A DNA stretch of 64,000 bases from Candidatus Staskawiczbacteria bacterium (GTDB lineage: Bacteria > Patescibacteriota > Minisyncoccia > Minisyncoccales > Staskawiczbacteraceae), in contig JACPYG010000006.1 of assembly GCA_016196125.1 (NCBI GenBank), forward strand, positions 54,511 to 118,510. The letters run 5' to 3'. Shown here in pieces: positions 3,650-36,463 of the stretch. The notes beneath the pieces are model-generated. The model had not been told where the DNA came from, searched no databases, and saw nothing but the letters and a program-made list of their open reading frames with translations. The first letter of the stretch is position 1. Each line of letters opens with the position of its first letter. The translations under genes were made by a program, and so were the position numbers.

Positions 3650-3654
3650 AATTT

Positions 3655-5318: not shown

Positions 5319-5322
5319 ATTT

Positions 5323-6264: not shown

Positions 6265-6266
6265 AT

Positions 6267-8272: not shown

Positions 8273-8285
8273 CTCTTTTAATCTA

Positions 8286-15854: not shown

Positions 15855-15930
15855 CGTAATAGAGGCCAGTTTCTATCTTTTTCCAAAAAAATTGGAGGCT
15901 TTATAGCCCATTTAGTATTGATAAATTTAG

Positions 15931-17292: not shown

Positions 17293-17832
17293 ATGAATAT
17301 AGAAAATAATTTTGGTATTTCAAACATTTCCCAAAAAGAAATTAAAAATCTTGCCGCTTTAGTGCTAAAAAATATTTCAAATCCGGAGAATGGATTGGGA
17401 AAAGATCTTTTCAATGCGATTATCGCTATTGTTCCCCAAACAACCGTTGAAGCGATCATTGTGGACAGTATCGATCATCCAACAAAAGTGCTGGTTATGC
17501 CAAGGAATGACCGTAACTACCCTAAGTCATGCCATTTACCGGGAAGCTTTATCAGATATAGCGAAACTTTTTCCAGAAGGTTACACCGTCTTGTGCAGAC
17601 AGAACTGAAAGTGGACATCAGAAAATTTAAAGATACTAACATTAAATACAACTGCTTGGAAAAGAAAAATAAGAGGCATATTATAGGACTTTACTTCTTA
17701 GTCCAACTTATTGCTAATCCCACGGTCGTACATCGATGGGTGGATTATATCCCTAAAAATCTTATAAGGCAACATAAAGATTTTTTAAAGAACTATTTTC
17801 ATTGGAAAATCGGAGCATCGCTTTGGGAATAA
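17293..17832 (+). CDS. hypothetical protein (only plus-strand gene inside the glycan supercluster; weak Nudix-like stretch)
   Basis: 179-aa ORF with a divergent AT-rich promoter region at 17170-17292. LPGSFIRYSETFSRRLHRLVQTELKV weakly resembles a Nudix box. Confidence 0.45.
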   Translation: MNIENNFGISNISQKEIKNLAALVLKNISNPENGLGKDLFNAIIAIVPQTTVEAIIVDSIDHPTKVLVMPRNDRNYPKSCHLPGSFIRYSETFSRRLHRLVQTELKVDIRKFKDTNIKYNCLEKKNKRHIIGLYFLVQLIANPTVVHRWVDYIPKNLIRQHKDFLKNYFHWKIGASLWE

Positions 17833-19587: not shown

Positions 19588-20904
19588 TTATATAAATTTT
19601 AATTTTTGGTTTTCTGTATTTTTTCTCTCTATGTCTTTTATTATTTCTAAAAATCGTTCTATGGGATTATACCTTGTTTCTATGTAATTATTATTAAATT
19701 TAGTTTTGAATTTATCTAAGTTCTTTGCACTGGCTATTTTTTTAAGATAATCCTCTAACTCTTCTATGGTTTGAAATGAGGCGCTACATGCACCCAATGC
19801 TTCAAAGTTATCTGATTTTATCGGATAATTCATCAATTGTAAAGATACTTTTGAGCTCATGGTTGCCTCAACTAATGAAGTTGACTGGAAGCTTATAAAT
19901 ATATCTGCTGTTTTAAATGCCTCTTGCAACCCTTCTCTTGTGTCAGTAAATGCAATATCTTTTAAATTTTTCTTTAGTAATTCTCTATTTTCTCCTGGAT
20001 GCGGCCTATAAAAAAACTTTATTCTTAGCTTATTGCAGATTTCATTTATTTTTTTGATGGTTTCCATCTTAACATCAAAAAATTCTTCATTGTAAAATTC
20101 TAAATTAGTGCCTAAATAATAAACAATATAATTTTTATCTTTTTTCTTGGTATCTTTATTTTTTTCAATTAAATACGGATAGCCCAATATATAAATATCT
20201 TCTGATTTTCTCACGTTTTGTTTTTCATATAAATCTGCAAAATATTTTCCCCAAACCAAAAGATAATCAACAAATTTACCGCTCTCAATTGGCCAAAAAG
20301 AATCGTCTATTCCGTGTTGAATCTCCAAAGTAATAATACCCAATTTTTTGCTCGCTAACACAATTGCCCTTTCAATTGGTAAAACATCGCTCCATAAAAC
20401 AATATAATCTGGTTTGGCAATTCTTAATTTATTTTCTACTTCTTCAATCAAACGGTAAAGATATTTAATATTATTTTCTTTTAAGTAACTTAAAATATAC
20501 TGATCTAAATCACTAGTAACGATGTAACCTATAAAATTTTTAACTGCAAAAAATCTATCCCAATTACCATGATTAATTAATCCTACTTTTTGATATTTCT
20601 TCGCTCCCAAAATAATGTTGTAATATTTAAATGGCCTAAATAGAATATTTTTTTTGTTTCTTTGAAAACTTAAAAAGGGGTTTTTATTAGAATATAGTTT
20701 TGAAAAAATCCTATCTAAAAATCTAACTAAAAATCTGTTCTTGCTGTATCTATCAACATTTAACTGCAAAGTTTGATAAAATGATTCTTTCTCGGTATTT
20801 TTAACCCAGGCCACTTCTTTGAATCTATCAAAGAAATCAAATAAAAACTGAGGAAGTTTTTCACTGGGTATAATTTTTTCGTAATCAGAATATGCGGTAT
20901 TCAT
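19588..20904 (-). CDS. hypothetical protein, possible capsule/teichoic-type glycosyl- or phosphotransferase
   Basis: 438 aa in glycan operon context; HG-containing motifs but no confident family assignment. Confidence 0.45.
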   Translation of the reverse strand: MNTAYSDYEKIIPSEKLPQFLFDFFDRFKEVAWVKNTEKESFYQTLQLNVDRYSKNRFLVRFLDRIFSKLYSNKNPFLSFQRNKKNILFRPFKYYNIILGAKKYQKVGLINHGNWDRFFAVKNFIGYIVTSDLDQYILSYLKENNIKYLYRLIEEVENKLRIAKPDYIVLWSDVLPIERAIVLASKKLGIITLEIQHGIDDSFWPIESGKFVDYLLVWGKYFADLYEKQNVRKSEDIYILGYPYLIEKNKDTKKKDKNYIVYYLGTNLEFYNEEFFDVKMETIKKINEICNKLRIKFFYRPHPGENRELLKKNLKDIAFTDTREGLQEAFKTADIFISFQSTSLVEATMSSKVSLQLMNYPIKSDNFEALGACSASFQTIEELEDYLKKIASAKNLDKFKTKFNNNYIETRYNPIERFLEIIKDIERKNTENQKLKFI

Positions 20905-20905
20905 A

Positions 20906-22408
20906 TTATAATTTAATCATAAATAATATCTCTTTTCGCTCCTCAAAAGACAAAAAAAGGTAAAAACCAAACGCAATAACCACTGCATACACAGCACCCA
21001 TTTGAACTATTGTTAAAAAAACATTTGATGGTTGAAAAACTTTAAGAGACAAACCAGATAAAATAATGGTAAAAAAATACAAACCAATATTTTTTTTAAT
21101 CGCTAAATTAAAAAAATCTTTGAAACTAACTTTCATTATTTTTAGTATCTGATACAAAGACAAAGGAAAATCAATCAAAATCATTGGAATAGTAGTTCCC
21201 AAAACAACTCCCAAAATGCCCAACGGCTTAACCAAGGCTAAGCTTAGTCCAACATTTAATAATGCGTTCAGAAAAGAAATTTTAAAAAACACCTTAACAT
21301 GACCTTTGGCTGTTGCCAAGCCGGAACCAACTTGTATCGTGCCGTTAAACAACCAGAAAGCTATTAAAAATTGAGCCGGCAAAATACTCTCGGCAAAACC
21401 CGGCCCCATCCAATTGGTAATAAAAAGTTCGGCAAAAATAATAGTAATAATAACTGCCGGAGCAAAAATCATTGTCATATACTTTGTTCCTTTAAATAAC
21501 AGTTCTTTTTGCTTACCTTGCTCATTTTTCCCTTCCAAAGAGGCGCTTGCGGAAAAAAGAGGGCCTCCAATTAAACTATTAACTGCCCTGAATCCATTTT
21601 GCAAACTATAACCTACGCCATATAGAGTAACTGCCGAAACGGAAGCAAAGGTTCCAATTACAAAACTATCAAAGTTAAATATAAGCAAAGACAATAAACT
21701 AGAAAGGAATACGAAGAAACTAAAACTAAAAATTTTCTTTGAAGTTTCTTTATCAAAATGGGGAGAAAAAATATGTATTTTTAAAATACGATGTCTCAAT
21801 ATAATATAAGAAATTATGTAGCGCGCTATAATTAAAAAATAAGATAGGGCTAAAAACCAAACCATCCCAAAATTATTTAAGAAAATAAAATAAGCAGATA
21901 TGGCAGTAAGAATTGTTATCGCTATATTATTTATTGCCAGCCAATCAAATCTTTGCAATCCATAAAGAACACCATCAAAAGTTCTGCCTGGCCAAATAAA
22001 TAACGATGCTATTGCGGCTACCCAAAAAAGTTGACGCATAATTGCTACATTAGCAGTCCCTATATTGAATATGCGGTCAAAATAAAAAGACAAAATTAGA
22101 AGAGTAACGGCAGAAATAAGTCCAACAATGATATAAAAAAATAAAGAAGAGTTTATTATTTTACTTGTTCCTTCTTTGTCGCCCCTGCCCATAAATTCGG
22201 CTATATATTTTACAACAGCAGTGCCTATGCCAAAATCAAGAACTCCAAAATATCCTATAAATGTCATTACCAATAAGTAGGCGCCATAAACTTCTTTTCC
22301 AACATGAGAAACAATGAAAGGGAATAAAACAAGCCCTACGGCAAAACTAATTCCGTAATTAATGATATTATATTTTATATTACTGCTAATGGTTCTTTTT
22401 CTAGACAT
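20906..22408 (-). CDS. polysaccharide biosynthesis protein / Wzx-type flippase (MOP superfamily)
   Basis: 500 aa, about 12-14 predicted hydrophobic helices; typical Wzx layout. Confidence 0.8.
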   Translation of the reverse strand: MSRKRTISSNIKYNIINYGISFAVGLVLFPFIVSHVGKEVYGAYLLVMTFIGYFGVLDFGIGTAVVKYIAEFMGRGDKEGTSKIINSSLFFYIIVGLISAVTLLILSFYFDRIFNIGTANVAIMRQLFWVAAIASLFIWPGRTFDGVLYGLQRFDWLAINNIAITILTAISAYFIFLNNFGMVWFLALSYFLIIARYIISYIILRHRILKIHIFSPHFDKETSKKIFSFSFFVFLSSLLSLLIFNFDSFVIGTFASVSAVTLYGVGYSLQNGFRAVNSLIGGPLFSASASLEGKNEQGKQKELLFKGTKYMTMIFAPAVIITIIFAELFITNWMGPGFAESILPAQFLIAFWLFNGTIQVGSGLATAKGHVKVFFKISFLNALLNVGLSLALVKPLGILGVVLGTTIPMILIDFPLSLYQILKIMKVSFKDFFNLAIKKNIGLYFFTIILSGLSLKVFQPSNVFLTIVQMGAVYAVVIAFGFYLFLSFEERKEILFMIKL

Positions 22409-22418
22409 ATTTAATTTT

Positions 22419-23558
22419 TTAATCTTTATCCCAAATATTATCTTTTACCCATTCGCCTTTTTCATCCTTCCACCATACTCTTGGGTCGCGAAAAGTGTCG
22501 CAAACTCTGTCAAATTCATCTTCTGTCATATCTACATACTCAAGCCAGCGTTTCAAGTCGCTCGGTTTCACATGGTCATACTTTTTAACCATTTCAATTC
22601 CCTGTTCTCTTGTTATATATCCCCTTCTAATATCCTTAGAAGCGTGGTCAGATGCGCGCCCATAACCGAATTTAATATATTTCAAATAATCGTGCACACC
22701 ATTTTCATGCATATCGTCCAAGTTTGAGAATTTTCGGTAAGTTCTGTCAAAATTACCTTCAAACTTTTTCCACCCGTAAGTATCCATCATTAATTTTACA
22801 TGAGCATTGGCGTCCCATGGAATGAAGTTGCCGAGATAAATACCCCGCACTCCCACGTCTTCAAGTTCTTTATCGGTAGGATATTTCGCCCACAACACGT
22901 CTTGTTCTTTAATGCCTAATTTTTCGTCAATCATATCATCAAAATCATATCCTCGGCATGCATGCTCGTCACGAAATTTACGCGTCATTTCTATAAAATC
23001 ATTCATAGAATACATTCCACCCAAATCAACATAACCGTGCTCACCCCAAATAATCAAAGGTATGTTCATTTTTACCGCAACTTGTACCGGATAGGTAAAT
23101 ATTCCGCAATGATTGTGCCAATTCATATCACCCATTAAATAAAAACATTTTTTGTTTATTTTTTTAAGAAGTGTTTCACTAGGCCTGAAAATAATATGGT
23201 CTGCGTTAAATGCATGACGCATATTCTCAAGATTTTCTTCTCCAATTGGTAAAAAATTATTACCATGATAGGTAACTAATAAAGGCCTTAATCCCAACTC
23301 TTTGATTACGTAGTGAGTTTGGAAATAACTGTCTTTTCCTCCACTAACTGGAATAATACAATCATAGTTACTGTTGGTTTTATATTTTGCAACTATTTTT
23401 TTTAACATTTCCTTTCGCAAACCCCAGTCAATATTATCTGTTTGATTGAACACCCGGCACCCGCTGCAAACACCGTTTTCATCAAATATTAAAGGCACCG
23501 CCGAAGAAGACGGATAAACGCATTTTGTGCAATAAGTTGCTTTTGGAGGTCTTGTCAT
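22419..23558 (-). CDS. N-acetyl sugar amidotransferase (WbuX/PseA family, PP-loop ATPase)
   Basis: PVSGGKDS PP-loop motif plus an N-terminal Cys-rich segment; followed by HisF- and HisH-like genes. Confidence 0.85.
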   Translation of the reverse strand: MTRPPKATYCTKCVYPSSSAVPLIFDENGVCSGCRVFNQTDNIDWGLRKEMLKKIVAKYKTNSNYDCIIPVSGGKDSYFQTHYVIKELGLRPLLVTYHGNNFLPIGEENLENMRHAFNADHIIFRPSETLLKKINKKCFYLMGDMNWHNHCGIFTYPVQVAVKMNIPLIIWGEHGYVDLGGMYSMNDFIEMTRKFRDEHACRGYDFDDMIDEKLGIKEQDVLWAKYPTDKELEDVGVRGIYLGNFIPWDANAHVKLMMDTYGWKKFEGNFDRTYRKFSNLDDMHENGVHDYLKYIKFGYGRASDHASKDIRRGYITREQGIEMVKKYDHVKPSDLKRWLEYVDMTEDEFDRVCDTFRDPRVWWKDEKGEWVKDNIWDKD

Positions 23559-24373
23559 ATATTTTTTATACTAAGATTTATAATCGGACGAATATCTATA
23601 CCAGCATTTTTTAGGGTTTTTTTAGCTTCAATGACACTATTTTCGGTAAAATTAAAAATATTTCCTGCCGATACGGCGCTGGCTCCGCCCTCCTTAATTC
23701 CATCTACAAAATGTGAAAATTCTCCTACTCCTCCGCAAGCAATCACTGGTATTGATACCGCTTTGACAACCATTTTAATCAGCTTAATATCATAACCGTT
23801 TGCGCTGCCATCTCTATCTATTGAATTTAAAAAAATTTCACCCGCGCCCCTCTTCTCTACTTCTTCGGCAAAGAACACGGGATCTAAACCAGTGGGCTTT
23901 TTACCATGACTAACGTAAACTTCATATTCTTTCTTTTCATTTATTTTTACATCAATGCCAACCACAATGCATTGCCTGCCGAATGCCTTTGAAGCCTTTG
24001 TTATAAAATCAGGATTTTCGAACACCGCTGTATTTATTATCACTTTATCGGCGCCTCTTTTTAACCGTTCTCTTATATCTGCAATATTTTTTATATTGCC
24101 TCCAAAAGTAAGCGGAATAAAGCACGTTTTTGAAACTGTTTCAATAATCTGGTAAATACTATCCATGCTTTTTATTTTATGGTCATCCCTTTGTAAATCA
24201 TGGTGCTGGTCATCGCTAATATCAATGTAAATTAATTCATCGGCAGACCAAGAGTTAATTCTTTCAACTTGGGTAATCGGGTTGCCCAATACTTGGTGAT
24301 AAGAAAACTTTTCAGACCTTACCAATCTGCCATTTTTTAAAAATAAACACGGAATTAGCCTTTTTTTAAGCAT
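23555..24373 (-). CDS. imidazole glycerol phosphate synthase cyclase subunit HisF-like (WbuZ-like)
   Basis: LIPCLFLKNGRLV ... (beta/alpha)8 HisF-like; paired with the HisH-like gene. Confidence 0.85.
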   Translation of the reverse strand: MLKKRLIPCLFLKNGRLVRSEKFSYHQVLGNPITQVERINSWSADELIYIDISDDQHHDLQRDDHKIKSMDSIYQIIETVSKTCFIPLTFGGNIKNIADIRERLKRGADKVIINTAVFENPDFITKASKAFGRQCIVVGIDVKINEKKEYEVYVSHGKKPTGLDPVFFAEEVEKRGAGEIFLNSIDRDGSANGYDIKLIKMVVKAVSIPVIACGGVGEFSHFVDGIKEGGASAVSAGNIFNFTENSVIEAKKTLKNAGIDIRPIINLSIKNI

Positions 24374-24375
24374 GA

Positions 24376-24990
24376 TTAACTGATATTAGAAAATTTCCTT
24401 AATATTTCCAAACCCTCTGTTTGACTTTTTTCAGGATGAAATTGAACTGCAAATATATTCTCTTTTTGTAATATGGCAGCAAACTTAACCCCGTAATTAC
24501 ACCAACCAACCACTAAGTTTTTATCTTCAACATCCGGATAATAACTGTGAACGAAGTAAAATGTTTGCTCGGTATTGCCTCCGCTTAAAATAGGCGAAGC
24601 AAGATTGCAAACAACTTCATTCCAACCAACATGAGGAACTAATAATTTTGATTGCCCCAAATTAAATCTTACAACTTCTGCGCCAATCCAGCCTAATCCT
24701 TGAAATTCCCCTTCTTCGTAGCTTTTTTTGCATATAAGCTGCATTCCTAAGCAAATCCCTAAAAACGGTTTTTTATTTTCTATCACTTCTTTATTCAAAA
24801 CTTCTATTAAATCCAACTTTTTTAAATTTTCCATTCCATAGCCGAATGCTCCAACTCCAGGCAAAATTATTTTATCCGCTTTTTGGATTTTTTGAATATC
24901 ATTTGTTATTTCCGACTGTATTTGCAAAACATCCAATGCATTTTTCACTGAACTTAGGTTTCCAAGGCCGTAATTTATAATTGCAATCAT
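24376..24990 (-). CDS. glutamine amidotransferase HisH-like (WbuY-like)
   Basis: MIAIINYGLGNLSSV...GICLGMQL...FHPE class I GATase triad motifs. Confidence 0.85.
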   Translation of the reverse strand: MIAIINYGLGNLSSVKNALDVLQIQSEITNDIQKIQKADKIILPGVGAFGYGMENLKKLDLIEVLNKEVIENKKPFLGICLGMQLICKKSYEEGEFQGLGWIGAEVVRFNLGQSKLLVPHVGWNEVVCNLASPILSGGNTEQTFYFVHSYYPDVEDKNLVVGWCNYGVKFAAILQKENIFAVQFHPEKSQTEGLEILRKFSNIS

Positions 24991-24994
24991 TGTA

Positions 24995-25753
24995 TTATGT
25001 ATTTTTCTGTTTTATATTTTCGTTTACTTTAATGATTTCTGGATTTTTCTCAAAAAATAATATCACATCTTTCATTGTAAAATTAGGATTTTTAGGATAC
25101 ACATTATTATAAAGAATTTTTAAAAGTTCATAATCTTCTTTTTCGTCGAGCGTCCATCTATAAAAAGAATAATCCTTATTATTTTTGATGTTTTTTGTTT
25201 TAAACAACGGTGAATTTTTTCTGATATACAGTGTCACATGCTCTTTGTCATCCTGGTTTTTAGCTAATTCAAATACTTTTTTTAAAGTATCAAAAGAAAA
25301 CACCTCAACATCCAACCCCCTAGGATATGTTCTTTCATCAAGAATATTGGAAACATAGTCAGAGTCAGAAGTTAAAAAACTATCTATTACTTTATCAATT
25401 ACTTTTGGGTCAATTAATGGGCAATCTGAAGTAATTCTAACTATAATATTGGCATTAAAATAATTTGCGGCTTTAAAATATCTGTCTAATACGTTTTGTT
25501 CAGAACCGCGGAAGACAGTAACTTTTTGGTTATTATAATCTTGAATTAGCTTCGCAATAACATCATCTTCTCTTTTGTTTGTTGTGGCGACAATAATTTC
25601 ATTAATTATTTTTGATTTTAAAACTCTTTCTACTACCCTTATTAAAACCGGCTGACCCAGAAGATCAAGCAATACTTTGCCTGGTAAACGGGTAGAACTA
25701 GTTCTCGCCTGAATAATTGCTATAATTTTTCCGTGTGATTTATGGCTTTTCAT
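24995..25753 (-). CDS. acylneuraminate/pseudaminate cytidylyltransferase family (CMP-nonulosonate synthetase, PseF/NeuA-like)
   Basis: IIAIIQARTSSTRLPGKVL cytidylyltransferase N-terminus. Confidence 0.75.
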   Translation of the reverse strand: MKSHKSHGKIIAIIQARTSSTRLPGKVLLDLLGQPVLIRVVERVLKSKIINEIIVATTNKREDDVIAKLIQDYNNQKVTVFRGSEQNVLDRYFKAANYFNANIIVRITSDCPLIDPKVIDKVIDSFLTSDSDYVSNILDERTYPRGLDVEVFSFDTLKKVFELAKNQDDKEHVTLYIRKNSPLFKTKNIKNNKDYSFYRWTLDEKEDYELLKILYNNVYPKNPNFTMKDVILFFEKNPEIIKVNENIKQKNT

Positions 25754-26577
25754 GATTTTATATTTTTCTTCCTTAAAGCAGACAAGTATACGTTTTCGAG
25801 TAAAAATGCCACAGTTAAAGGACCTATTCCTCCTGGAACCGGCGTCAAAAAAGAAGCTTTTTTACTTACGCTTTCCTTATCAACATCTCCTTTTACTATG
25901 CCATCTGCATCGCGAAAAATACCAGCATCAATTAATACGACTCCTTTTTTTATATTATTTTCATTAATTAATTTTAAACAACCACAAACAGTAATTATGG
26001 CATCTGCCAATTGGATTTTTGCATTGATATTTTCTTTTGACTCTTTATTATTAATTAAATATATAAGATTAATGCCTTCTTTCTTTAAAAACTCTTTTAA
26101 AACTTGCCCAAAAATTTCTGAATTTACCAATGCCATAATTTTTTTATTTTTAAAATCATCGGCAAATGCCTGGCTTAGGGTAAATAAAATCGCCTTGGGC
26201 AATACTGGAATAAAAATTGGCGTATGAAATCCATCAACATCTTTTTTAGCATCTATTTTACCGATAATTTCATTTTCATTAAATTTTTTGGGAAGAGGCA
26301 ACTGAACAATAATTCCATCGACTCTGCTATCATTGTTTATTGCTTCAATTTTATTTATTACTTCGTCTTGGATAGAATCTTGACTAAATATGAAATCTTG
26401 TACTTCAATGCCAATTCTTTTGCCAGCTTCCTTTTTTAAATTGACATAAATCCTGCTCGCCTCATCATTGCCAACTAAAATAATAGCCAAAACAGGTTTT
26501 ACTTTTTCTAATATAATCTTGTTTTTTAAATTTTCAAGTATTGCCTGACTTACTGATTTACCGTCAAAAATATGCAT
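25750..26577 (-). CDS. folD: bifunctional 5,10-methylene-tetrahydrofolate dehydrogenase / 5,10-methenyl-tetrahydrofolate cyclohydrolase
   Basis: AIILVGNDEASRIYV...GIIVQLPLP...DVDGFH are FolD signatures. Confidence 0.85.
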   Translation of the reverse strand: MHIFDGKSVSQAILENLKNKIILEKVKPVLAIILVGNDEASRIYVNLKKEAGKRIGIEVQDFIFSQDSIQDEVINKIEAINNDSRVDGIIVQLPLPKKFNENEIIGKIDAKKDVDGFHTPIFIPVLPKAILFTLSQAFADDFKNKKIMALVNSEIFGQVLKEFLKKEGINLIYLINNKESKENINAKIQLADAIITVCGCLKLINENNIKKGVVLIDAGIFRDADGIVKGDVDKESVSKKASFLTPVPGGIGPLTVAFLLENVYLSALRKKNIKS

Positions 26578-26579
26578 AA

Positions 26580-27092
26580 TTATATTTTTTTTATTTTCTC
26601 AAATACATCCACAAGTGTTTGAACATATAATGGATAAAGCTCGTTGTAAACACCTATCTCATTCTGGCTTACAATTTCTTTAAAATTTTCTACAATGACC
26701 TCTCCTTCGTCAATGTCTTCTGCCATCCAATGTGCGGCAACCGAAGCTTTTTTGTTACCTTCATCTAATAGTTTTTTAATAGGATCAGCCCCCTTATATT
26801 TGTATAAACAAGGATGAAAATTAATGCACTTAAATTCTTTTAATATCCTGGACTTTATAATTTGTCTTCCATGGCAGCATAAAAATAAATCAGCTTCTAA
26901 GGTTTCTAAATAATTAACAAAATCATCTAAATTAATATTTTTTGGTTTTCTAACATTGAGGCCCATTTTTAAAGCCACTTGCTCCACAATATCGTCTACT
27001 GGCACCACGCACACCACATTATGACCCAAAGCCATAGTGGCTAATAAATTTATTAATCCGGCTTGCCTGCCGCCATAAAAAATAACTTTCAT
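26580..27092 (-). CDS. formyltransferase N-terminal-domain protein (putative sugar N-formyltransferase)
   Basis: 170 aa with a Formyl_trans_N-like fold (HPCLYKYKGADPI region); directly downstream of folD. Confidence 0.65.
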   Translation of the reverse strand: MKVIFYGGRQAGLINLLATMALGHNVVCVVPVDDIVEQVALKMGLNVRKPKNINLDDFVNYLETLEADLFLCCHGRQIIKSRILKEFKCINFHPCLYKYKGADPIKKLLDEGNKKASVAAHWMAEDIDEGEVIVENFKEIVSQNEIGVYNELYPLYVQTLVDVFEKIKKI

Positions 27093-27094
27093 AT

Positions 27095-27784
27095 TTATAT
27101 TTTCAAAAATTTATTAAAATATTCTAAACCTTCTTTAATGCTTGCTGTATCATTTTTATATTTTTTAATCTTTTCCAGTTCTAACAAAAACATTTGCCAG
27201 GCCGTTTTGCTTCGTCCGCTGGCAAGTCTTTTCCAGGGTAAATTTACAGAACACATTAAAATAACTCCATTCCACAATTGTTGTTTAGAACTTTTTACAA
27301 AGCTCAAATAAGCTCTTAAAACATGATAAGCAGAAGTAACAATAATCATTCTTTTGTAACTATTTTTTTTTGCTAATGTTACCATATGAACTGCTTGGTC
27401 TTTAGTATTAAAAGATTTATCTTCAATAATAATTGAATTTTCTAAAATACCTTTATTTATCAATTCTTTTTTCAATTCTAATAAATGCAGGTCATTTTCA
27501 TCGTTACGAGTGCCGCGACCAATTAAATCATTGTTGCCTATAATTACAATTTGAGGAGCAATGTTTTTTTTATATATATTTGCTGTTTCTTTGACACGAT
27601 CCAATCTATCGCCTTGCAATAAAACAATAATATCTGATGGCTTTAATAATTGATGAGTGATTTTATAAAAAAGCACTGTGCCATTAAAACCAAAATGGTA
27701 ATATAAGGCTATCTTTAAGAAAAAATTCAGCAAAACTTCGCTTATTGAATTATATAAATGTTTTAGCGAGAGATTAAATTCCAT
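27095..27784 (-). CDS. DUF218/YdcF-like domain protein
   Basis: VIIGNNDLIGRG...VTSAYHVLRA resembles the DUF218 family. Confidence 0.55.
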   Translation of the reverse strand: MEFNLSLKHLYNSISEVLLNFFLKIALYYHFGFNGTVLFYKITHQLLKPSDIIVLLQGDRLDRVKETANIYKKNIAPQIVIIGNNDLIGRGTRNDENDLHLLELKKELINKGILENSIIIEDKSFNTKDQAVHMVTLAKKNSYKRMIIVTSAYHVLRAYLSFVKSSKQQLWNGVILMCSVNLPWKRLASGRSKTAWQMFLLELEKIKKYKNDTASIKEGLEYFNKFLKI

Positions 27785-28818
27785 GAAAGCGGTGTTCCTC
27801 GTTTAATATTGGTTTTGGCTTTTTTGCCTAGCACTTTTGGCATCTCTTTGGGAGCCAAACCAAACCCGGGCCTTATGCATTTGACATTTTTTAAGGTAAA
27901 GTTTTCGCCGGCCTTTATATCTTCAATTACAAATAATGACCTCTTAAAAACCAAATTGACTGACTCTTTTTTTCCGGAGCCATATTGCACTTTACCAATA
28001 GCTTTTTCGGCATCTCTGACTGATTTTACCAATTGTTCCAATTCCTGTGGCTCCAAAGAAAAAGCGGCGTCTGGCCCACCGTCACTCCTTTTTATGGTTA
28101 AGTGCTTCTCAATGATTTTAGCCCCCAATGCTACAGAAGTTACGGCCGCAACAATTCCCAGGCTATGGTCGGAAAGACCGACTACCACTTTAAAATTTTT
28201 TACTAAATCCGGAATAGTTGCCAAATTCATTTCTTCCAAGTTTGCCGGATAAGATGAAACACAATGTAAAACTGCCAGTTGCTTTGATCCATATTTTCTT
28301 AAAGTGGTTAGAGCCAAATTTATCTCTTCTTTGGTTGCCATTCCGCGAGAAATAATAACCGGTTTTTTTGTTTTGCCAATTTTTTTTAAAAGCTCGATGT
28401 CGCCAATTTCAAACGAGGCAACTTTATAAACTAAAACCCCCATATTTTCTAAAAAATCAACAGCCGTTTCGTCAAAGGGGGCAGAAAAAAGAATGAGTCC
28501 CTTTTTCTCGGCATATTTTTTTAACTTTGCCTGCCACTCCCATGGCGTATAGGCTGTTTTATATAATTGATAGAGCGTCTGCCCCTTCCATGCATCATTT
28601 ACATTAACTTGAAAGTACTTTCCATCAGAATCAATGGTCATGGTGTCTGGTGTGTAAGTTTGTAACTTAACTGCATCAACTCCCGCATTAGCGGCTTCAT
28701 CTATAAGTTTATAAGCACGATTAATATCCTGATTATGATTCCCCGATAATTCGGCAACAATAAAAATTGGCTGGCCGTCACCTATTAGTTTTTTCCCAAT
28801 TTTAATTTTATTTGACAT
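27763..28818 (-). CDS. pseI: N-acetylneuraminate/pseudaminate synthase family (NeuB/PseI-like, with SAF domain)
   Basis: GDGQPIFIVAELSGNHNQD...AGVDAVKLQTY is the NeuB-family signature; 351 aa. Confidence 0.85.
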   Translation of the reverse strand: MSNKIKIGKKLIGDGQPIFIVAELSGNHNQDINRAYKLIDEAANAGVDAVKLQTYTPDTMTIDSDGKYFQVNVNDAWKGQTLYQLYKTAYTPWEWQAKLKKYAEKKGLILFSAPFDETAVDFLENMGVLVYKVASFEIGDIELLKKIGKTKKPVIISRGMATKEEINLALTTLRKYGSKQLAVLHCVSSYPANLEEMNLATIPDLVKNFKVVVGLSDHSLGIVAAVTSVALGAKIIEKHLTIKRSDGGPDAAFSLEPQELEQLVKSVRDAEKAIGKVQYGSGKKESVNLVFKRSLFVIEDIKAGENFTLKNVKCIRPGFGLAPKEMPKVLGKKAKTNIKRGTPLSWNLISR

Positions 28819-28819
28819 A

Positions 28820-29476
28820 TTATTTTTTCTTTCCGCTGTTTTTCTTTAAAAGAAACATTGTATCTATATTGTCGCTTTTGAGATGTTTATACCTGCTCTC
28901 TTTTTGCAGTGCCAAATCTTTGAAATAATTTAAGTATAATTTTACGAAGTTAGTTTTCCAAAGCATATTTTTACGGCCTCGATATTCTATATCAGTATAT
29001 TTATCGGCATAATATTCAAAACCCCAAACATATTTCTTTGAACATCTGTAAATTTCTTTCATTGCTTTTTGTATATGAAGAGGAGATATATGAATGAGCA
29101 CTCCAGAAGTAAAAACCAAATCGAAATAGTTATCTTTAAAGGGAATATCAAAAGCTGATCCATAAATAATATTAATATTTTTTGTTCTTGATTTAGCAAG
29201 CTCTGCCACATCTTTGTTTATTTCTATTCCATAAAGATGCCGAAATCCCATTTTTTGAAGTAAAACTAATTGTATTCCAATATTTGAACCCACTTCTAAA
29301 ATCTTCATTGAACGGTTTAATTTACCAATAAATTCTTCATCCATTTTCATTCTCGTAATTCCGTAATTTTTTTTGTATAACTCATTTTCCGACGCTATAT
29401 TTAACATGTTTCTTGCAACATATTCTTTGCCAAATTTTTCGCTCCATATTTTCTCTTGAAAAGTATTTTTACTCAT
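28820..29476 (-). CDS. class I SAM-dependent methyltransferase (pseudaminic-acid-biosynthesis-associated methylase type)
   Basis: ILEVGSNIGIQL motif I; positioned between the pseI-like and pseC-like genes. Confidence 0.6.
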   Translation of the reverse strand: MSKNTFQEKIWSEKFGKEYVARNMLNIASENELYKKNYGITRMKMDEEFIGKLNRSMKILEVGSNIGIQLVLLQKMGFRHLYGIEINKDVAELAKSRTKNINIIYGSAFDIPFKDNYFDLVFTSGVLIHISPLHIQKAMKEIYRCSKKYVWGFEYYADKYTDIEYRGRKNMLWKTNFVKLYLNYFKDLALQKESRYKHLKSDNIDTMFLLKKNSGKKK

Positions 29477-30623
29477 AGCTCTTGTTTAATAATTTTTTAG
29501 TTGTGTTTATAACTCTTTCTACTTCATTATTTGTCATTTTTGGAAAAAGCGGTAAGGTAACCGCTCTTTCATAGTATTTTTCGGCAACCGGAAAATCACC
29601 TAATTTATAACCAAACTCCTTTTGATAAAAAGGATGCATATGTAATGGCATATAGTGAACCTGTGCTCCAATTCCACTTTTTTGTAACTGTTCAAAAAAC
29701 TTTCTTCTGTCTTTATCAATTAATTGTACGGTATATACATGCCAAGCCGAAATTCCTTGAAAGTTTTCTTTGGGCAATATAAGGTTTTCTGTATTTTTAA
29801 AATTATTATTATATATTTTTACAATTTCTCTTCTTCTTTTAATAAATTTATCCAGCTTTTTAAGCTGGCTTAATCCCAAAGCGCACTGAATATCGGTAAT
29901 TCTAAAATTAAAAGAAGGATTTTCTATTTCATAATACCATGCTCCTTTTTCTGGTTTTTTTACTATTCCATGACTTCTTAAAACTTTTAGTTTATCATAA
30001 AAGTTTTTATTATTAGTCAATATCATGCCACCCTCACCCGTAGTAATATGTTTAACTGGATGAAAACTAAACACAGTCATGTCGGCAAAACTGCCAACTT
30101 TCTTGCCTTTGCCCTGTGCTGAACTTGTAAAAGCATATTCAGCCCCCAACGCATGACAGGCGTCTTCAATTAACAAAATTTTGTGTTTTTTGGCAATTTT
30201 TAAAATTTGTTCATAATCACAAGGATTTCCCGCAAAATCCACTGTAACTATGGCTTTTGTTTTTTTAGTAATTTTTTTTTCTATTTCTTTTGGATCAATA
30301 TTTAAACTATCTTCTTTAATATCTGAAAAAATCGGTTTTGCCCCGCAAAAAAATATCATATTGGCAGTTGCGGCAAATGTTAATGGGGTTGTAATTACTT
30401 CATCTCCAGGTTTTATACCGGTTGCAACATAAGCCAAATATAACGCCGCTGTTCCAGAAGAAACCGCAACAGCATATTTTGCTTTACAATATTTGGCAAC
30501 AGCTTTTTCAAATTCTTCAACTTTCGAACCCTGGGTTAGCCAATCCGATTTTAAAATTTTCACAACCTCTTTAATATCATTATCATCTACCCATTGATGG
30601 CCATAGGGAATATTTTTTTTCAT
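29469..30623 (-). CDS. pseC: UDP-4-amino-4,6-dideoxy-N-acetyl-beta-L-altrosamine transaminase (PseC)-like DegT aminotransferase
   Basis: IPYGHQWVDDNDIKEV N-terminus matches the PseC pYGrq motif; 384 aa. Confidence 0.8.
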   Translation of the reverse strand: MKKNIPYGHQWVDDNDIKEVVKILKSDWLTQGSKVEEFEKAVAKYCKAKYAVAVSSGTAALYLAYVATGIKPGDEVITTPLTFAATANMIFFCGAKPIFSDIKEDSLNIDPKEIEKKITKKTKAIVTVDFAGNPCDYEQILKIAKKHKILLIEDACHALGAEYAFTSSAQGKGKKVGSFADMTVFSFHPVKHITTGEGGMILTNNKNFYDKLKVLRSHGIVKKPEKGAWYYEIENPSFNFRITDIQCALGLSQLKKLDKFIKRRREIVKIYNNNFKNTENLILPKENFQGISAWHVYTVQLIDKDRRKFFEQLQKSGIGAQVHYMPLHMHPFYQKEFGYKLGDFPVAEKYYERAVTLPLFPKMTNNEVERVINTTKKLLNKSYE

Positions 30624-31585
30624 GTAATTAAATGTTTTATTTGTTCTTTATCTAGCCATTTAGTATTGGAGTCTGATGAATACAAAAACTTATCAACAGT
30701 TTCTTTGCCATCTTGATGATTTTTGGTGTCCCAAAAAGAGAATTCCGGCGTAATAATAAAATATTCTTCAAATTCTTTAGCATTGCGAGATTCTTCGGCA
30801 GTTAATAACACCTCGTGTATTTTTTCACCAGGTCTTATGCCAATTATTTTTCTTTTTACTCCGGGAGCAATTGCTTCCGCCAAATCAGTAATTTTGGTGC
30901 TAGGAATTTTAGGAATAAATATTTCTCCGCCCTTCATATTTTCAATACATTTTACAACAAAGCGAACACCCTGATCTAATGTAATCCAAAATCGTGTCAT
31001 TGTTTCATCGGTAATAGTAATCTCTCCCATTTCTTTTTGTTTTTGAAATAAAGGCACCACGCTTCCGCTACTTCCGATTACATTTCCATAGCGAGCCACG
31101 CTAAACATAGTTTTACGATCTCCCGAATAACTATTGCCTTGCACAAAAAGCTTTTCAGCAACCATTTTAGTTGCCCCATAGAGATTCACCGGCTGCACTG
31201 CTTTGTCGGTGCTAATCAATATTGCTTTTTGGACGCCATTATTAATAGCTCCATCGATAACATTAACGGTTCCATCGATATTTGTTTTTATAGCTTCAAT
31301 AGGATTGTATTCGCATATCGGCACATGCTTTAAGGCTGCCGCGTGCACTACAATATCAACACCGTTAAAGGCCCTATGAAGCCTATTTGTATCGCGAATA
31401 TCTCCGATAAAAAATCTCAACCGTGGATCCTTTATCTCTCTTTCCATTTCAACTTGGGCTAACTCTCTATTGTCGTAGATTCTAACACTTTTAGGGTTGC
31501 ACTCTTTTAAAATAATTTTTGCAAATTCTTGGCCAAAAGAACCTACGCCTCCCGTAATTAAAATTGTTTTGTTGCCTAAGCTCAT
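30620..31585 (-). CDS. pseB: UDP-N-acetylglucosamine 4,6-dehydratase (inverting), PseB/FlaA1-like
   Basis: KTILITGGVGSFG and overall PseB layout. The start is trimmed to MSLGNK (ATG at 31585). Confidence 0.85.
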   Translation of the reverse strand: MSLGNKTILITGGVGSFGQEFAKIILKECNPKSVRIYDNRELAQVEMEREIKDPRLRFFIGDIRDTNRLHRAFNGVDIVVHAAALKHVPICEYNPIEAIKTNIDGTVNVIDGAINNGVQKAILISTDKAVQPVNLYGATKMVAEKLFVQGNSYSGDRKTMFSVARYGNVIGSSGSVVPLFQKQKEMGEITITDETMTRFWITLDQGVRFVVKCIENMKGGEIFIPKIPSTKITDLAEAIAPGVKRKIIGIRPGEKIHEVLLTAEESRNAKEFEEYFIITPEFSFWDTKNHQDGKETVDKFLYSSDSNTKWLDKEQIKHLIT

Positions 31586-31595
31586 ATTTTTGTAT

Positions 31596-31844
31596 TTACC
31601 ATTTTTTAATAGCATTTTTAACCCTTTCCTTGATTGTTAAATAAACTCTGTCTCCTTTTCCCATGGTTTCCGGAGAAACTAATCTTAAAATTTCTCTTCC
31701 CCAAATTCTATATTGACCGCTAACTTTATAGGTGTTGATAATACCGCCTTTAATCATTCTCTTCATTGTGCTTTCGCTAATTTTTAAAAAATCGCGAGCT
31801 TCTTTCGGAGTATATATTTTACCCGGTTTAATTTCGTCTGTCAT
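31596..31844 (-). CDS. small helix-turn-helix DNA-binding protein (excisionase/MerR-like HTH_17)
   Basis: 82 aa; YTPKEARDFLKISESTMKRMIKGGII is an HTH motif. Confidence 0.6.
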   Translation of the reverse strand: MTDEIKPGKIYTPKEARDFLKISESTMKRMIKGGIINTYKVSGQYRIWGREILRLVSPETMGKGDRVYLTIKERVKNAIKKW

Positions 31845-31906: not shown

Positions 31907-32842
31907 TTAATTATTTTTATCGTACCAATCAATGGTTAATTTTATGCCGTTTTCCAAATCATATTCAGGTTTATACCCCAACATTTTTTTGGCTTTGGAA
32001 ATATCGGCAATAAATCTTACTACTTCCCCTTGCCGATTCTTTCCGAGAAAAATCCGGCTTTTGCTTTGCAAATTTTTTTTAATCAGTTTTGCCGCATCAA
32101 TAAGCTTTGAGCCCTTTCCAAAAGCGATATTAAAAGTATTATTTTTTACATTATCAAATTTTTCTACGCACTTAATAATTCCTTCCACGCAATCATCAAT
32201 ATAGGTAAAATCCAAAACTTTATCTTTTCCAAAAATCTCTATATTTTTGTTTTTCTTCATTTTTCTTAAAATAAGTGGAATGAACCTTTCACTTTGGTCG
32301 TACATGCCATACACATTGGAAAATCTGCAAATAATATAATTTATGCCGTAACATTTGAAAAAAGAGTAAATTAAAACTTCGTCTGAAATTTTGCTCGCCG
32401 CGTAAGGGCTTTCGCACCGCTCTATATCAACATCCGTTTCTTTAGAAACCATTTCTTTCTTATTTCCATAGGTTTCCCTGCTTGAAGAAAAAATAATTCT
32501 CTTTATATTATTTTTTCTGGCAAACTCTAACACATTATAAGTGGTAATTACGTTATCTCGCGCTAAATCTGGATTTACCACCAAATCATAAACCCTTGGG
32601 TTTGCCGCTAAATGCACAACCATATCGATATCATTAGGTATTTTTTCTATATCTTCTTTTTTTAATAAATCTCCGATTATAGTGAGCCTGTTTAATCTCC
32701 CGCTCCACTTGTTGTGATTTTTATCAAAACCAATAACATCGTGACTTTTTTCCAAAAGCTTTTCAAAAAGCCGTGTGCCAATTGTTCCGGAAGACCCGGT
32801 AATTAAAATTTTCTTTTTTTTATTTTCTGGAGAATGAGACAT
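31907..32842 (-). CDS. NAD-dependent epimerase/dehydratase (SDR) family protein
   Basis: ILITGSSGTIGTRLFEKL. Confidence 0.8.
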   Translation of the reverse strand: MSHSPENKKKKILITGSSGTIGTRLFEKLLEKSHDVIGFDKNHNKWSGRLNRLTIIGDLLKKEDIEKIPNDIDMVVHLAANPRVYDLVVNPDLARDNVITTYNVLEFARKNNIKRIIFSSSRETYGNKKEMVSKETDVDIERCESPYAASKISDEVLIYSFFKCYGINYIICRFSNVYGMYDQSERFIPLILRKMKKNKNIEIFGKDKVLDFTYIDDCVEGIIKCVEKFDNVKNNTFNIAFGKGSKLIDAAKLIKKNLQSKSRIFLGKNRQGEVVRFIADISKAKKMLGYKPEYDLENGIKLTIDWYDKNN

Positions 32843-32898
32843 AAAATGTTAGAACGAAATGAATAATATTTTATTGGCGAACAAGCGACTAAAATATG

Positions 32899-33786
32899 CT
32901 ATGCATATTGTTTATTTTTAAAAGATTTATTTTTATCGAAATATTTATATGGCGGTGAACCAAAAAATAACTTTCTTATTTGAAGAATGATGGGTCCTAA
33001 TTTTTTCCTAAAAGGTATAAAAGAATAACAATAACTGGCCCAACAAAATAAAACAGCTTTCTTATAGTTAGGATAACTATTCATATATTTTTTTCTTAAT
33101 GTCAAGTTTACCTTCACATTCCTTCTTATTTTGTAATTTCTATAGTGATAAGGGTCGTCATGTTCCTGGTCTAAATAAAATACAAAGAATTCTTGGAAGT
33201 TATAAAATTTACCTACCTTCCCCATTTTTAACCACAAATCCCAATCTTCTATAAAAGCGAACTGCTCGTCATAACCCCCAACTTTTTGAAAAGTATCTTT
33301 TCTGAAAAGAACTGTAGTATGGGCAAATACATTATTGATTAAAATTGCCTTTCTAATGCGTTCATCCTCTCTTGGCAGCAAGTACCGCACAATTTCTTTG
33401 CCATTTTTATCTACTTTTATCACACCGCCTCCCACCAAGCAATATTCCGGATTTTTTTCCAAGAACTCTACTTGTTTTTCTATTTTTTTATCATCACACC
33501 AAACATCATCATCATCTAAACGAGCAATATATTTTCCCTGCGCCATTTTAACGCCTTTATTTAAAGAGGCGACTATGCCTAAATTAATTTTATTGCATAA
33601 AATAGTTATTTTTGGATTATGCTTGGCAAAACTGCTAATTAATTCGCCGGTGGTATCTGTTGAAGCATCATTGACGATAATCAATTCTAAATTTTTATAA
33701 CTTTGCCTCCAAACGCTTTCTATGGCCTTGGCAATATACTTTGCTCTATTATAAGTAGGTAAAATTATTGAAACTAATGGAATCAT
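32899..33786 (-). CDS. glycosyltransferase family 2
   Basis: VSIILPTYNRAKYI...VNDASTD...DDDD GT-A motifs. Confidence 0.85.
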   Translation of the reverse strand: MIPLVSIILPTYNRAKYIAKAIESVWRQSYKNLELIIVNDASTDTTGELISSFAKHNPKITILCNKINLGIVASLNKGVKMAQGKYIARLDDDDVWCDDKKIEKQVEFLEKNPEYCLVGGGVIKVDKNGKEIVRYLLPREDERIRKAILINNVFAHTTVLFRKDTFQKVGGYDEQFAFIEDWDLWLKMGKVGKFYNFQEFFVFYLDQEHDDPYHYRNYKIRRNVKVNLTLRKKYMNSYPNYKKAVLFCWASYCYSFIPFRKKLGPIILQIRKLFFGSPPYKYFDKNKSFKNKQYA

Positions 33787-33789
33787 TTT

Positions 33790-35001
33790 TTAATTTTGGT
33801 TCATTAATTTTTGAAAAACGTCTTCATATTGTTTTATGTTTTTTTCTACTGAAAAATATCTTACTCTCTTTATGCCCTCTTTTGAAAAACTCTGCCTTAA
33901 AGAAGAATCTGATAGAACCCTTATAATTGCTTTTGACAAAGATTTGTAATCTCCTACTGGAACTAAAATTCCGCTTTTGCCATTCTCAATAATTTCTCCG
34001 GGACCCGATTTGCAATCAGTTGAAATAACCGGCGTTCCGCAAGCCATAGCTTCAACCAATACATTTCCAAATCCTTCATGTATAGAAGATAAAACAAACA
34101 CCGAGGCATTTTTCATGTACTTGAAGGGATTTTTCTGAAATCCAAGAAATGCAACTTTGTCAGAAATTCCAAGTTCTTTGGCCAGTTTTTCTAATTCTCC
34201 CCGGTCTTTCCCTTCGCCTAAAATAGCCAGGCGGGCTGGCATAGTCTTTAAAACCAAATTGAATGCGCAAAGCAAAGTGGGAAAATCTTTTTGATTGATC
34301 AATCTTCCAGCTCCTAAAATAAGAGGGGGGGTTGCTTGCGAAAACCAAGGGTGGTTTACCGGTTCTTTTGACCAATTCTGGATTCTATCGGCCGCCACGG
34401 GATAATATATTACCTTAACCTTGTCAGGAATCTTGACCACATCCAAAATACTTTCCGCCACGCCTTCTGATGCGCAAATCACCGAATCGGATAATGGATA
34501 AAAAATCCGCATTAAATGTGGCAGGATAAACATGCCGAAGAATCTGCGGTACAAACTTCTTGCGTTACTGGCAAGGCCAAAAAAGTGATTATGGTCTGTC
34601 AAAACAACTTTTACTTTTGCCCCCGAAAGAACTTTTGCCATCATGGCAAGAACATTAATGTGGGGAAAGGCAGCAACAAAAATATCCGGACGCTCTTTCC
34701 TAAGATATGCTATTAATTTAAAAAGCGCGCTTTTGATATAGGGATTGCTTAAATTTACCACGCAAATATTCTTTGGGATTTCTCGCGTAAAGCTTTCCTC
34801 TATTTTTAAGCCGACAAATGATACTGCGTATTTGTTTTGATCAATATTGTCAGTAATATTTCTCACCCATCTTGCCATTGCGGCATTTCTAAAAATAGTG
34901 TAAAAATAAGCAACTTTCACTCTGTTAAATTGTTTCGCATCCTGCGAAATACCGCTAAAAGCGGATTTAACAGGGTTAATTTTTTTAAATTCCCCTGTCA
35001 T
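33790..35001 (-). CDS. glycosyltransferase family 1
   Basis: EGFGNVLVEAMACGTPVIST motif. Confidence 0.85.
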   Translation of the reverse strand: MTGEFKKINPVKSAFSGISQDAKQFNRVKVAYFYTIFRNAAMARWVRNITDNIDQNKYAVSFVGLKIEESFTREIPKNICVVNLSNPYIKSALFKLIAYLRKERPDIFVAAFPHINVLAMMAKVLSGAKVKVVLTDHNHFFGLASNARSLYRRFFGMFILPHLMRIFYPLSDSVICASEGVAESILDVVKIPDKVKVIYYPVAADRIQNWSKEPVNHPWFSQATPPLILGAGRLINQKDFPTLLCAFNLVLKTMPARLAILGEGKDRGELEKLAKELGISDKVAFLGFQKNPFKYMKNASVFVLSSIHEGFGNVLVEAMACGTPVISTDCKSGPGEIIENGKSGILVPVGDYKSLSKAIIRVLSDSSLRQSFSKEGIKRVRYFSVEKNIKQYEDVFQKLMNQN

Positions 35002-36436: not shown

Positions 36437-36463
36437 TTATTTTTTAATTTTTAGCAAAAACTA

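Follow-up and report, generated by a model that had tools for sequence, protein, structure and literature searches.

The stretch of DNA analysed here (hereafter the window) comprises 64,000 nucleotides (nt) of contig JACPYG010000006.1 from Candidatus Staskawiczbacteria, a groundwater bacterium of the Candidate Phyla Radiation (CPR, or Patescibacteria) with a tiny genome, and it contains an operon predicted to make a modified pseudaminic acid (Pse). The minus strand carries all genes between positions 22419 and 31615, and each named gene is intact. Transcription runs from a small HTH_17 gene through those for PseB, PseC, a methylase, PseI, a DUF218 protein, a formyltransferase, FolD, a cytidylyltransferase, HisH, HisF/WbuZ and WbuX, after which come a Wzx flippase, a protein of 438 amino acids (aa) and more sugar genes. 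Neighbouring genes across the Pse cluster overlap by at most 22 nt or are separated by gaps of at most 10 nt; they therefore form a single operon. An earlier reading of the sequence alone, the original prediction, had listed PseB, PseC, a NeuB/PseI homolog, a homolog of the cytidine monophosphate (CMP)-nonulosonate synthetase, the methylase, DUF218, the formyltransferase, FolD and an amidotransferase triad, all of which are present and intact. Its operon end at 31585 was too short, as the first ATG of the PseB open reading frame (ORF) lies at 31615.

We think it rather probable that this is a CMP-Pse operon in which two canonical enzymes, PseH and PseG, have been replaced by unrelated ones, and that its product is CMP-Pse5Am7Fo, which would carry a 5-acetamidino and a 7-formyl group, with or without an additional methyl group. 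Functions beyond family membership are those that we infer from sequence.

The backbone is that of pseudaminic acid, not legionaminic (Leg) or neuraminic acid, because PseB, PseC, PseI, the methylase and WbuX all score above curated NCBIfam cutoffs. Thus, the inverting 4,6-dehydratase PseB (30620–31615, minus strand, as are all genes of the operon) scores 482.9 bits with TIGR03589 (cutoff 407.75), and the aminotransferase PseC (29469–30623) and the pseudaminic acid synthase PseI (27763–28818) score 492.4 bits with TIGR03588 (cutoff 423.5) and 477.7 bits with TIGR03586 (cutoff 340.25), respectively. All three are equivalog models, and the Pse-type backbone of the original prediction stands on their trusted cutoffs. 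By the same models, the three enzymes are orthologous to those of the canonical Campylobacter/Helicobacter pathway (PseB, C, H, G, I and F), with which the operon shares its logic; unlike that pathway, it has no PseG of family GT28 and no GNAT-type PseH, and its cytidylyltransferase is not of the TIGR03584 type. The latter enzyme (CTP_transf_3; 24995–25753; PF02348, 133.8 bits) scores 219 bits against its counterpart in the Pse cluster of Synechococcus NIES-970 and 125 bits against that of Bacillus cereus. We describe it as a putative CMP-nonulosonate synthetase of the kind carried by the Pse clusters of Bacillus and Synechococcus, rather than of the TIGR03584 PseF type.

The absence of PseH and PseG was examined by scanning 47 ORFs of the window with NCBIfam, by six-frame phmmer searches and by custom hidden Markov models (HMMs) for both proteins. 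References were taken from the annotated Pse clusters of B. cereus, Synechococcus NIES-970 and Parabacteroides distasonis and used singly and as small HMMs. These searches found no PseH, PseG or LegG within the 64-kb window, in agreement with the original prediction, which had recognised neither a PseH-like nor a PseG-like protein. No PseH-like GNAT appeared in any of the six frames with the custom HMM and five GNAT references, no scanned ORF matched TIGR03585, and none of the frames encodes an LmbE/PIG-L deacetylase, a serine hydroxymethyltransferase (SHMT, GlyA), a 5-formyl-tetrahydrofolate cyclo-ligase (MTHFS) or another FolD. The sole GT28-like ORF (53475–54596) lies 22 kb away among ftsZ, ftsA, htrA and clpB. 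As a hidden PseG it was rejected: it scores 29 bits with TIGR03590 (cutoff 154) and 205 bits with NF010135, a diglucosyl-diacylglycerol synthase model, as a UgtP-like glycolipid synthase.

For comparison, loci were fetched from species-representative genomes and metagenomes (numbered with the prefix L). All genes of the module but the methylase, ten in number, recur in the CPR relative L039 with protein identities of 50–60% and in the order PseB-PseC-PseI-DUF218-formyltransferase-FolD-cytidylyltransferase-HisH-HisF-WbuX. The methylase, a Pse-associated S-adenosylmethionine (SAM) methyltransferase (28820–29476; TIGR03587, 184.3 bits, cutoff 112), recurs in other related loci and is a candidate for N-methylation of an amidine or for O-methylation.

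The formyltransferase and its proposed folate supply

The formyltransferase (26580–27092) is a 170-aa protein that consists of Formyl_trans_N only (PF00551, 53 bits). Its motifs CINFHP (N-x-H) and EDIDEGE (Asp) correspond in alignment to the active-site residues of PurN and Fmt, and in an alignment of 15 diverse family members Asn91, His93 and Asp128 are invariant; the catalytic triad whose presence was in question is thus both there and conserved. The AlphaFold2 model, with a predicted local distance difference test (pLDDT) score of 95.9, superposes on the catalytic subdomains of Fmt and ArnA with TM-scores of 0.89–0.93 and root-mean-square deviations of 1.7–2.3 Å. The best match of the family profile in the PDB is the formyltransferase domain of ArnA, and the closest solved relatives are formyltransferases of NDP-4-amino-sugars, together with Fmt. 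As modelled, the protein is a complete catalytic core that lacks the C-terminal subdomain. It would take the place of PseH and formylate the 4-amino group of the PseC product.

At E ≤ 1e-5, the family comprises 81 proteins, each about 170 aa long. The few with a named source come from CPR bacteria, a metagenome-assembled genome (MAG) of Melainabacteria and a DPANN archaeon, and a genome scan extends the family to methanogens and to two MAGs of proteobacteria. Among 22 loci taken from species-representative genomes of CPR bacteria and archaea, about 19 have the formyltransferase gene directly next to that for NeuB/PseI. Archaea are not known to formylate initiator Met-tRNA; since many of the hosts are archaeal, this argues against a remnant of a housekeeping Fmt.

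Related gene arrangements suggest that formyl groups are installed by more than one route. Formyltransferase genes are paired with LmbE/PIG-L deacetylases in L026 (9288–10522), L035 (7562–8943) and L038 (9509–10871), all Pse-type clusters that also retain a PseH-like GNAT. Such pairs suggest that formyl replaces the 5-N-acetyl group there, a route unlike that of the window, and where PseH-like GNATs or deacetylases are present the formyltransferase may serve another nitrogen. Separately, on a Wildermuthbacteria contig (L030, 2–769), a single reading segment free of stop codons spans the C-terminal part of a formyltransferase and a PseH-like GNAT; it may be a formyltransferase::GNAT fusion.

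FolD (25750–26577), the bifunctional methylenetetrahydrofolate dehydrogenase and methenyltetrahydrofolate cyclohydrolase, contains both Pfam domains (PF00763, 114 bits; PF02882, 106 bits) and keeps the YxxxK, QLPLP and DVDG motifs with the catalytic Lys, Gln and Asp. A full FolD adjoining the formyltransferase had been predicted correctly, but its placement upstream had not: in the direction of transcription, it lies directly downstream. With NCBIfam models it reaches 198 bits at best, where the cutoffs are at least 333, and it lacks the canonical GxSxxVGxP/CHxxT NADP site, the loop reading LVNSEIFGQ. We considered on these grounds that it might be a specialised paralog and rejected this, as the LVNSxIFGQ loop and the missing CHxxT are common to a CPR clade of FolD that includes housekeeping copies beside SHMT, thymidylate synthase and dihydrofolate reductase; the cofactor use of CPR FolD may differ from that of the textbook enzyme. 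Among the proteins compared (P0084–P0134), an 11-residue deletion after DVDGFH is confined to the lineage of the window FolD and P0084. In a neighbour-joining tree, FolD copies embedded in glycan clusters do not form one clade (P0099 stands apart), and therefore no dedicated FolD lineage is claimed.

What is conserved is the association. FolD is embedded in the L039 cluster as well, where the order DUF218-formyltransferase-FolD is kept at the identity level given above, and in closer relatives FolD, formyltransferase and DUF218 are apparently on the same contigs. In the archaeal loci L012, L018 and L019, the formyltransferase is followed by MTHFS (TIGR02727, 153 bits); GlyA comes after the formyltransferase in L018 (611 bits) and, by homology to the L018 protein, in L012; and FolD is found near the formyltransferase in L018, L019 and L020. 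The association is therefore not accidental, and the proposal that FolD feeds 10-formyl-tetrahydrofolate (10-formyl-THF) to the formyltransferase, part of the original prediction, gains support from it. The archaeal genes make up a one-carbon folate supply module inside glycan operons, located at 4195–4740 (L012), 10513–12577 (L018), 10461–11832 (L019) and 10950–11771 (L020).

DUF218 and the hydrolase step

The DUF218/YdcF-family protein (27095–27784; PF02698, 59 bits), whose Pfam domain and YdcF-like fold are both confirmed, was listed in the original prediction but not read there as a candidate for the PseG step. Several lines of evidence point to that step. All ten contexts of DUF218 that were examined (the window, L039, L007, L009, L011, L015, L036, L037, L038 and L041) are nonulosonate clusters in which DUF218 stands beside NeuB and PseG is absent. 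Thus, the minimal operon of a Magasanikbacteria genome (L037) consists of PseB, PseC, a cytidylyltransferase, NeuB and a DUF218::GNAT fusion; apart from DUF218, these account for five of the six Pse functions, and DUF218 stands at the place left for the sixth, the hydrolase. Likewise, L038 follows the gene order of the Synechococcus plasmid cluster (PseB, PseC, PseF, PseG, PseH, formyltransferase, LmbE, PseI), and its DUF218 occupies the position of the GT28 PseG.

Gene fusions point in the same direction. The window protein has 37 close homologs, the few with a source name being from CPR bacteria, plus one marine sample. Six of the 37 also contain a GNAT domain, placed before DUF218 in some and after it in others. 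An exhaustive profile search of 1.8 billion representatives lists about 30 DUF218::GNAT fusions among its 150 best matches. These fusions were recognised by their lengths and match positions, four of them also being examined with Pfam, and the GNAT columns of the profile tilted the search towards fusions. The GNAT parts match PseH (TIGR03585) best among NCBIfam models, at 37–50 bits, under the cutoff. Furthermore, DUF218 was found fused to a DegT aminotransferase that is 43% identical to the window PseC, and the profile search also found it fused to Formyl_trans_N. In P. distasonis (L040), the canonical PseG is itself fused to a GNAT in the same position, and the likeness of the two fusions suggests that DUF218 is probably the missing uridine diphosphate (UDP)-sugar hydrolase. 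We therefore propose, as a reading that we regard as evenly balanced, that the UDP-sugar of Pse synthesis in CPR bacteria and their relatives is hydrolysed by this DUF218 subfamily, a non-orthologous replacement of GT28 PseG.

E. coli SanA and ElyC, which belong to the domain family, are membrane-anchored periplasmic envelope factors (PMC12176290). The subfamily described here differs from YdcF, SanA and ElyC of E. coli in being fused to cytoplasmic enzymes and encoded in nonulosonate operons, and in having Tyr, in half of its members, in place of the His proposed as catalytic in SanA. The fusions argue for a cytoplasmic location, unlike that of SanA and ElyC. Residues invariant in the subfamily are LQGDR, GN, NT, Q, S, R, W, G, E, K and Y; they include Asp59/Arg60, Asn126/Thr127, Ser151, Arg157 and Glu202. 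That DUF218 might serve as a deacetylase alongside the formyltransferase, like LmbE in the pairs of L026, L035 and L038, was considered and rejected because L038 has a separate PIG-L deacetylase and because acetyltransferase fusions occur in operons devoid of a formyltransferase.

Other families hold comparable positions. A GT2-like protein of about 230 aa lies beside NeuB or the formyltransferase in L010, L017, L021 and L023, as does an AP_endonuc_2 barrel of about 245 aa in L003, L005, L014, L016, L019 and L028. By locus, these two families and DUF218 are mutually exclusive, and GT28 PseG is found in none of the loci concerned. The three small families, which are unrelated to one another, may carry out one and the same step in different ways, or they may mark variants of the pathway.

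The amidotransferase triad and the surrounding glycan island

The last three genes of the operon are contiguous and encode a HisH/WbuY-type glutaminase subunit (24376–24990; TIGR01855, 238 bits, cutoff 105), a HisF/WbuZ-type synthase, or ammonia-channel, subunit (23555–24373) and a PP-loop N-acetyl-sugar amidotransferase of the WbuX family (22419–23558; TIGR03573, 344.9 bits, cutoff 203.2). WbuX and HisH pass the cutoffs of their models. The HisF-like protein matches WbuZ first (TIGR03572, 268.9 bits, cutoff 299.7), HisF second and, with 234.9 bits, the archaeal ‘acetamidino modification’ protein AglZ/HisF2 third. The triad, or WbuX alone, adjoins the formyltransferase or PseI in L005, L014, L021, L022, L026 and L039, and is therefore part of the nonulosonate module rather than of the pathway of another sugar. 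Its assignment to the Pse pathway had been predicted and agrees with its place inside the module conserved between the window and L039. The most likely target of amidination is the 5-acetamido group.

Immediately downstream of WbuX lies the Wzx-type flippase gene (20906–22408; PF01943 and PF13440), followed by that of the 438-aa protein (19588–20904), a candidate nonulosonate glycosyltransferase judging by a weak match, 44.8 bits against a cutoff of 125, to the ‘surface carbohydrate biosynthesis protein’ model TIGR04396. Large candidate nonulosonate transferases are also encoded downstream of nonulosonate genes in L039 (10469–11902) and L016 (12218–13324); both weakly match the BFO_1060 glycosyltransferase family, and that of L039 matches Capsule_synth (KpsS-like) as well. 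At the other end, the operon is headed by a gene (31596–31844) for an 82-aa excisionase/MerR-like DNA-binding protein (HTH_17, PF12728, 35.8 bits), which overlaps the start of pseB. Small HTH genes of the same kind head the CPR glycan clusters L007, L023, L036, L037 and L038, and the protein may be a regulator of the cluster.

The Pse operon is embedded in a glycan island of some 37 kb, with further genes at 495–17169 and 31907–37378; for a small CPR genome, this is a considerable fraction. Its other sugar genes encode Gmd (497 bits), an Fcl-like protein, an HddA-like kinase and an HddC-like nucleotidyltransferase, RmlD and two more DegT aminotransferases. FkbM methyltransferases, an 888-aa protein combining GT2 and FkbM, a probable sugar C-methyltransferase, a second flippase and several glycosyltransferases are also present. 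The only plus-strand gene of the island (17293–17832, 179 aa) belongs to no Pfam or NCBIfam family and is conserved in L001. Next to it, an SDR dehydratase (17837–18796) is intact in the window at 319 aa and split into 82 and 226 aa in L001 (9685–10573, JACOTX010000021.1), a frameshift difference between the assemblies.

Predicted product, alternatives and significance

Put together, the genes suggest the following route. PseB and PseC, as identified by their equivalog HMMs, would convert UDP-N-acetylglucosamine into UDP-4-amino-4,6-dideoxy-beta-L-AltNAc (AltNAc, N-acetylaltrosamine). The formyltransferase would then formylate the 4-amino group, the sole free amine, with 10-formyl-THF, acting in the place of PseH as PseJ does, and FolD, encoded by the next gene, would regenerate the cofactor. 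DUF218 is predicted to release UDP instead of PseG, whereupon PseI would condense the free sugar with phosphoenolpyruvate to Pse carrying 5-N-acetyl and 7-N-formyl groups (Pse5Ac7Fo), and the CTP_transf_3 enzyme would yield CMP-Pse5Ac7Fo; for comparison, PseF accepts Pse5Ac7Fo in vitro (PMC11040635). WbuX, with ammonia from HisH/HisF, would turn an N-acyl group into an amidine, most likely the 5-acetamido into an acetamidino group. The methylase may methylate the product, which the flippase and the candidate 438-aa transferase would place in a surface glycan. The CMP-5,7-diamino-nonulosonate with formamido and/or acetamidino groups of the original prediction is thus supported by the gene set, by the active-site triad and fold of the formyltransferase and by the placement of the amidotransferase genes.

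One alternative concerns the hydrolase. The sugar could be formylated and amidinated as proposed while DUF218 plays another role, for example a SAM-dependent or accessory one, and the removal of UDP falls to a protein from another part of the genome or to a promiscuous enzyme of the cluster. E. coli YdcF is a SAM-utilising protein according to its PDB entry and SAM-binding according to PMC12176290, the formyltransferase-linked clusters L017, L023 and L024 lack both DUF218 and PseG, and the AP_endonuc_2 barrel and the GT2-like protein hold similar positions to DUF218. Nevertheless, DUF218 is fused to three enzymes of the UDP-sugar segment (PseC-like, PseH-like and the formyltransferase), which points to a step there, and canonical PseG is likewise fused to a GNAT. 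Moreover, the hydrolase is the only function that has no assigned gene besides DUF218 in minimal operons such as L037, and L038 encodes separate methylases and a PIG-L deacetylase alongside DUF218, arguing against those roles. On balance, we find it doubtful that the UDP-removing enzyme is one other than DUF218, whether encoded elsewhere or promiscuous.

Less probable still is a sugar that is only formylated, Pse5Ac7Fo, with WbuX/HisH/HisF amidating another sugar of the island, for example one of the N-acetylfucosamine type as in E. coli O145. Other sugar pathways are indeed encoded in the window (Gmd, the Fcl-like enzyme, extra DegT aminotransferases, RmlD), and WbuXYZ was reportedly first linked to FucNAm. 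Within the Pse operon, however, the triad follows the CMP-synthetase and precedes the flippase, a place that it keeps in L039, and in the five other loci given above WbuX or the triad is an immediate neighbour of the formyltransferase or PseI; amidinated nonulosonates have precedents in PseA and PtmG. We consider it very improbable that FolD and the formyltransferase are housekeeping proteins, the one-carbon enzyme of the genome and a truncated relative of Fmt, whose genes just happen to be in the glycan island, leaving the sugar unformylated. The window FolD does belong to a CPR clade found elsewhere in SHMT/thymidylate housekeeping neighbourhoods, it is the only FolD of the window, and the best NCBIfam match of the formyltransferase is fmt, at 52 bits, far under the cutoff. 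The C-terminal subdomain of Fmt binds tRNA, and the 170-aa protein lacks it. Its family stands beside NeuB in most loci, many of them archaeal, a DUF218::Formyl_trans_N fusion exists, and the order DUF218-formyltransferase-FolD is kept in the Pse module of L039; without the formyltransferase, the cluster would have no enzyme to cap the 4-amino group. The original prediction had named a formyltransferase without the triad, together with a merely housekeeping FolD, as an outcome that would count against it. The triad is present, and FolD is of ordinary CPR type, yet a conserved neighbour of the formyltransferase within the Pse module.

A number of observations weigh against the reading that we prefer, a doubly modified Pse made with a substitute formyltransferase and a substitute hydrolase. 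The cytidylyltransferase scores 34 bits with the PseF model TIGR03584, whose cutoff is 205.7. The formyltransferase coexists with PseH-like GNATs in L007, L011 and L019 and is thus not always a replacement of PseH. FolD is of the housekeeping type usual in CPR bacteria and may be the only copy in the genome. The formyl group itself may be the target of WbuX, with several possible intermediates. A Thr-His-Glu triad has been proposed for SanA (PMC12176290), and its His is Tyr in about half of the DUF218 subfamily, the window protein having the motif VTSAYH. Lastly, since L017, L023 and L024 contain neither PseG nor DUF218, the hydrolase may be encoded outside the cluster and may be a protein other than DUF218.

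Replacement of PseH by a formyltransferase is already known, so this part of the original prediction is not new. In Anoxybacillus kamchatkensis, PseJ takes the place of PseH and leads to Pse5Ac7Fo (Reimer et al., ACS Chem Biol 2018, PMID 30346688, as cited in PMC11040635). By that account, PseJ and the window share a folate-type formyltransferase encoded in a pse operon at the place of PseH, and a 7-N-formyl product. The window enzyme is a 170-aa single subdomain from a family of CPR bacteria, archaea and a few other MAGs, and it is accompanied by FolD and by DUF218 for PseG, features that the PseJ operon is not known to have. When PseJ was sought among solved structures by sequence, profile and fold, no chain of that name matched. 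Formyltransferase genes are also known from Leg clusters, namely those of Halorubrum PV6, which makes 5-N-formyl-Leg (PMC6137143), and of Ca. Kuenenia (SugarBase preprint), and the record of the Pse cluster on a plasmid of Synechococcus sp. NIES-970 (L035) annotates one in a nonulosonate cluster, as in the window. In the clusters of Synechococcus and Kuenenia, a deacetylase accompanies the formyltransferase, implying that acetyl is exchanged for formyl, whereas the window has no deacetylase; the Synechococcus cluster also retains GT28 PseG and PseH, unlike the window.

Amidination of the PseA/WbuX type is likewise known. E. coli O145 WbuXYZ and Campylobacter PseA and PtmG resemble the window in using a PP-loop amidotransferase with a HisH/HisF-like ammonia supply to turn N-acetyl into acetamidino groups; in the window, N7 of the sugar would be formylated, which leaves N5 or the formyl group as the target. 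The canonical pathway in P. distasonis, with its PseG::GNAT fusion, couples hydrolase and acyltransferase in the same way as DUF218::GNAT. What appears to be new is the compact formyltransferase family with its near-universal NeuB pairing in CPR bacteria and archaea, the recruitment of one-carbon folate genes into nonulosonate operons, the prediction of formyl and amidino groups on one Pse and, above all, the replacement of PseG by DUF218. A search of the literature accessible to us found no report of Pse carrying both groups (Pse5Am7Fo included), none tying CPR/Patescibacteria to pseudaminic or nonulosonic acid, no link between DUF218 and nonulosonate synthesis and no description of an enzyme activity for a DUF218 protein.

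Pseudaminic acids occur on flagella, pili, capsules and S-layers, and shape host and phage recognition. If the proposed scheme is true, the surface of an episymbiotic bacterium bears Pse5Am7Fo or a formamidino variant of it. The first defined chemistry of the DUF218 fold would then be the cleavage of a sugar-1-diphosphate-carrier bond, and the UDP-sugar would provide a soluble model substrate for the action of SanA and ElyC on undecaprenyl-diphosphate-linked envelope precursors. These two E. coli proteins affect the flux of cell-wall precursors, and the prediction, if borne out, would offer a first biochemical handle on a widespread domain. Both the use of a minimal 170-aa formyltransferase for N-formyl Pse and that of DUF218 as a PseG substitute could be tested in the existing in vitro reconstitution of Pse5Ac7Ac synthesis with six enzymes (PMC7910423). 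Furthermore, the recurrence of GlyA, FolD and MTHFS beside the formyltransferase points to cofactor-supply genes recruited into the glycan operons of reduced genomes. A complete, if oddly staffed, Pse pathway suggests that minimal, host-attached CPR cells invest in elaborate surface sugars.

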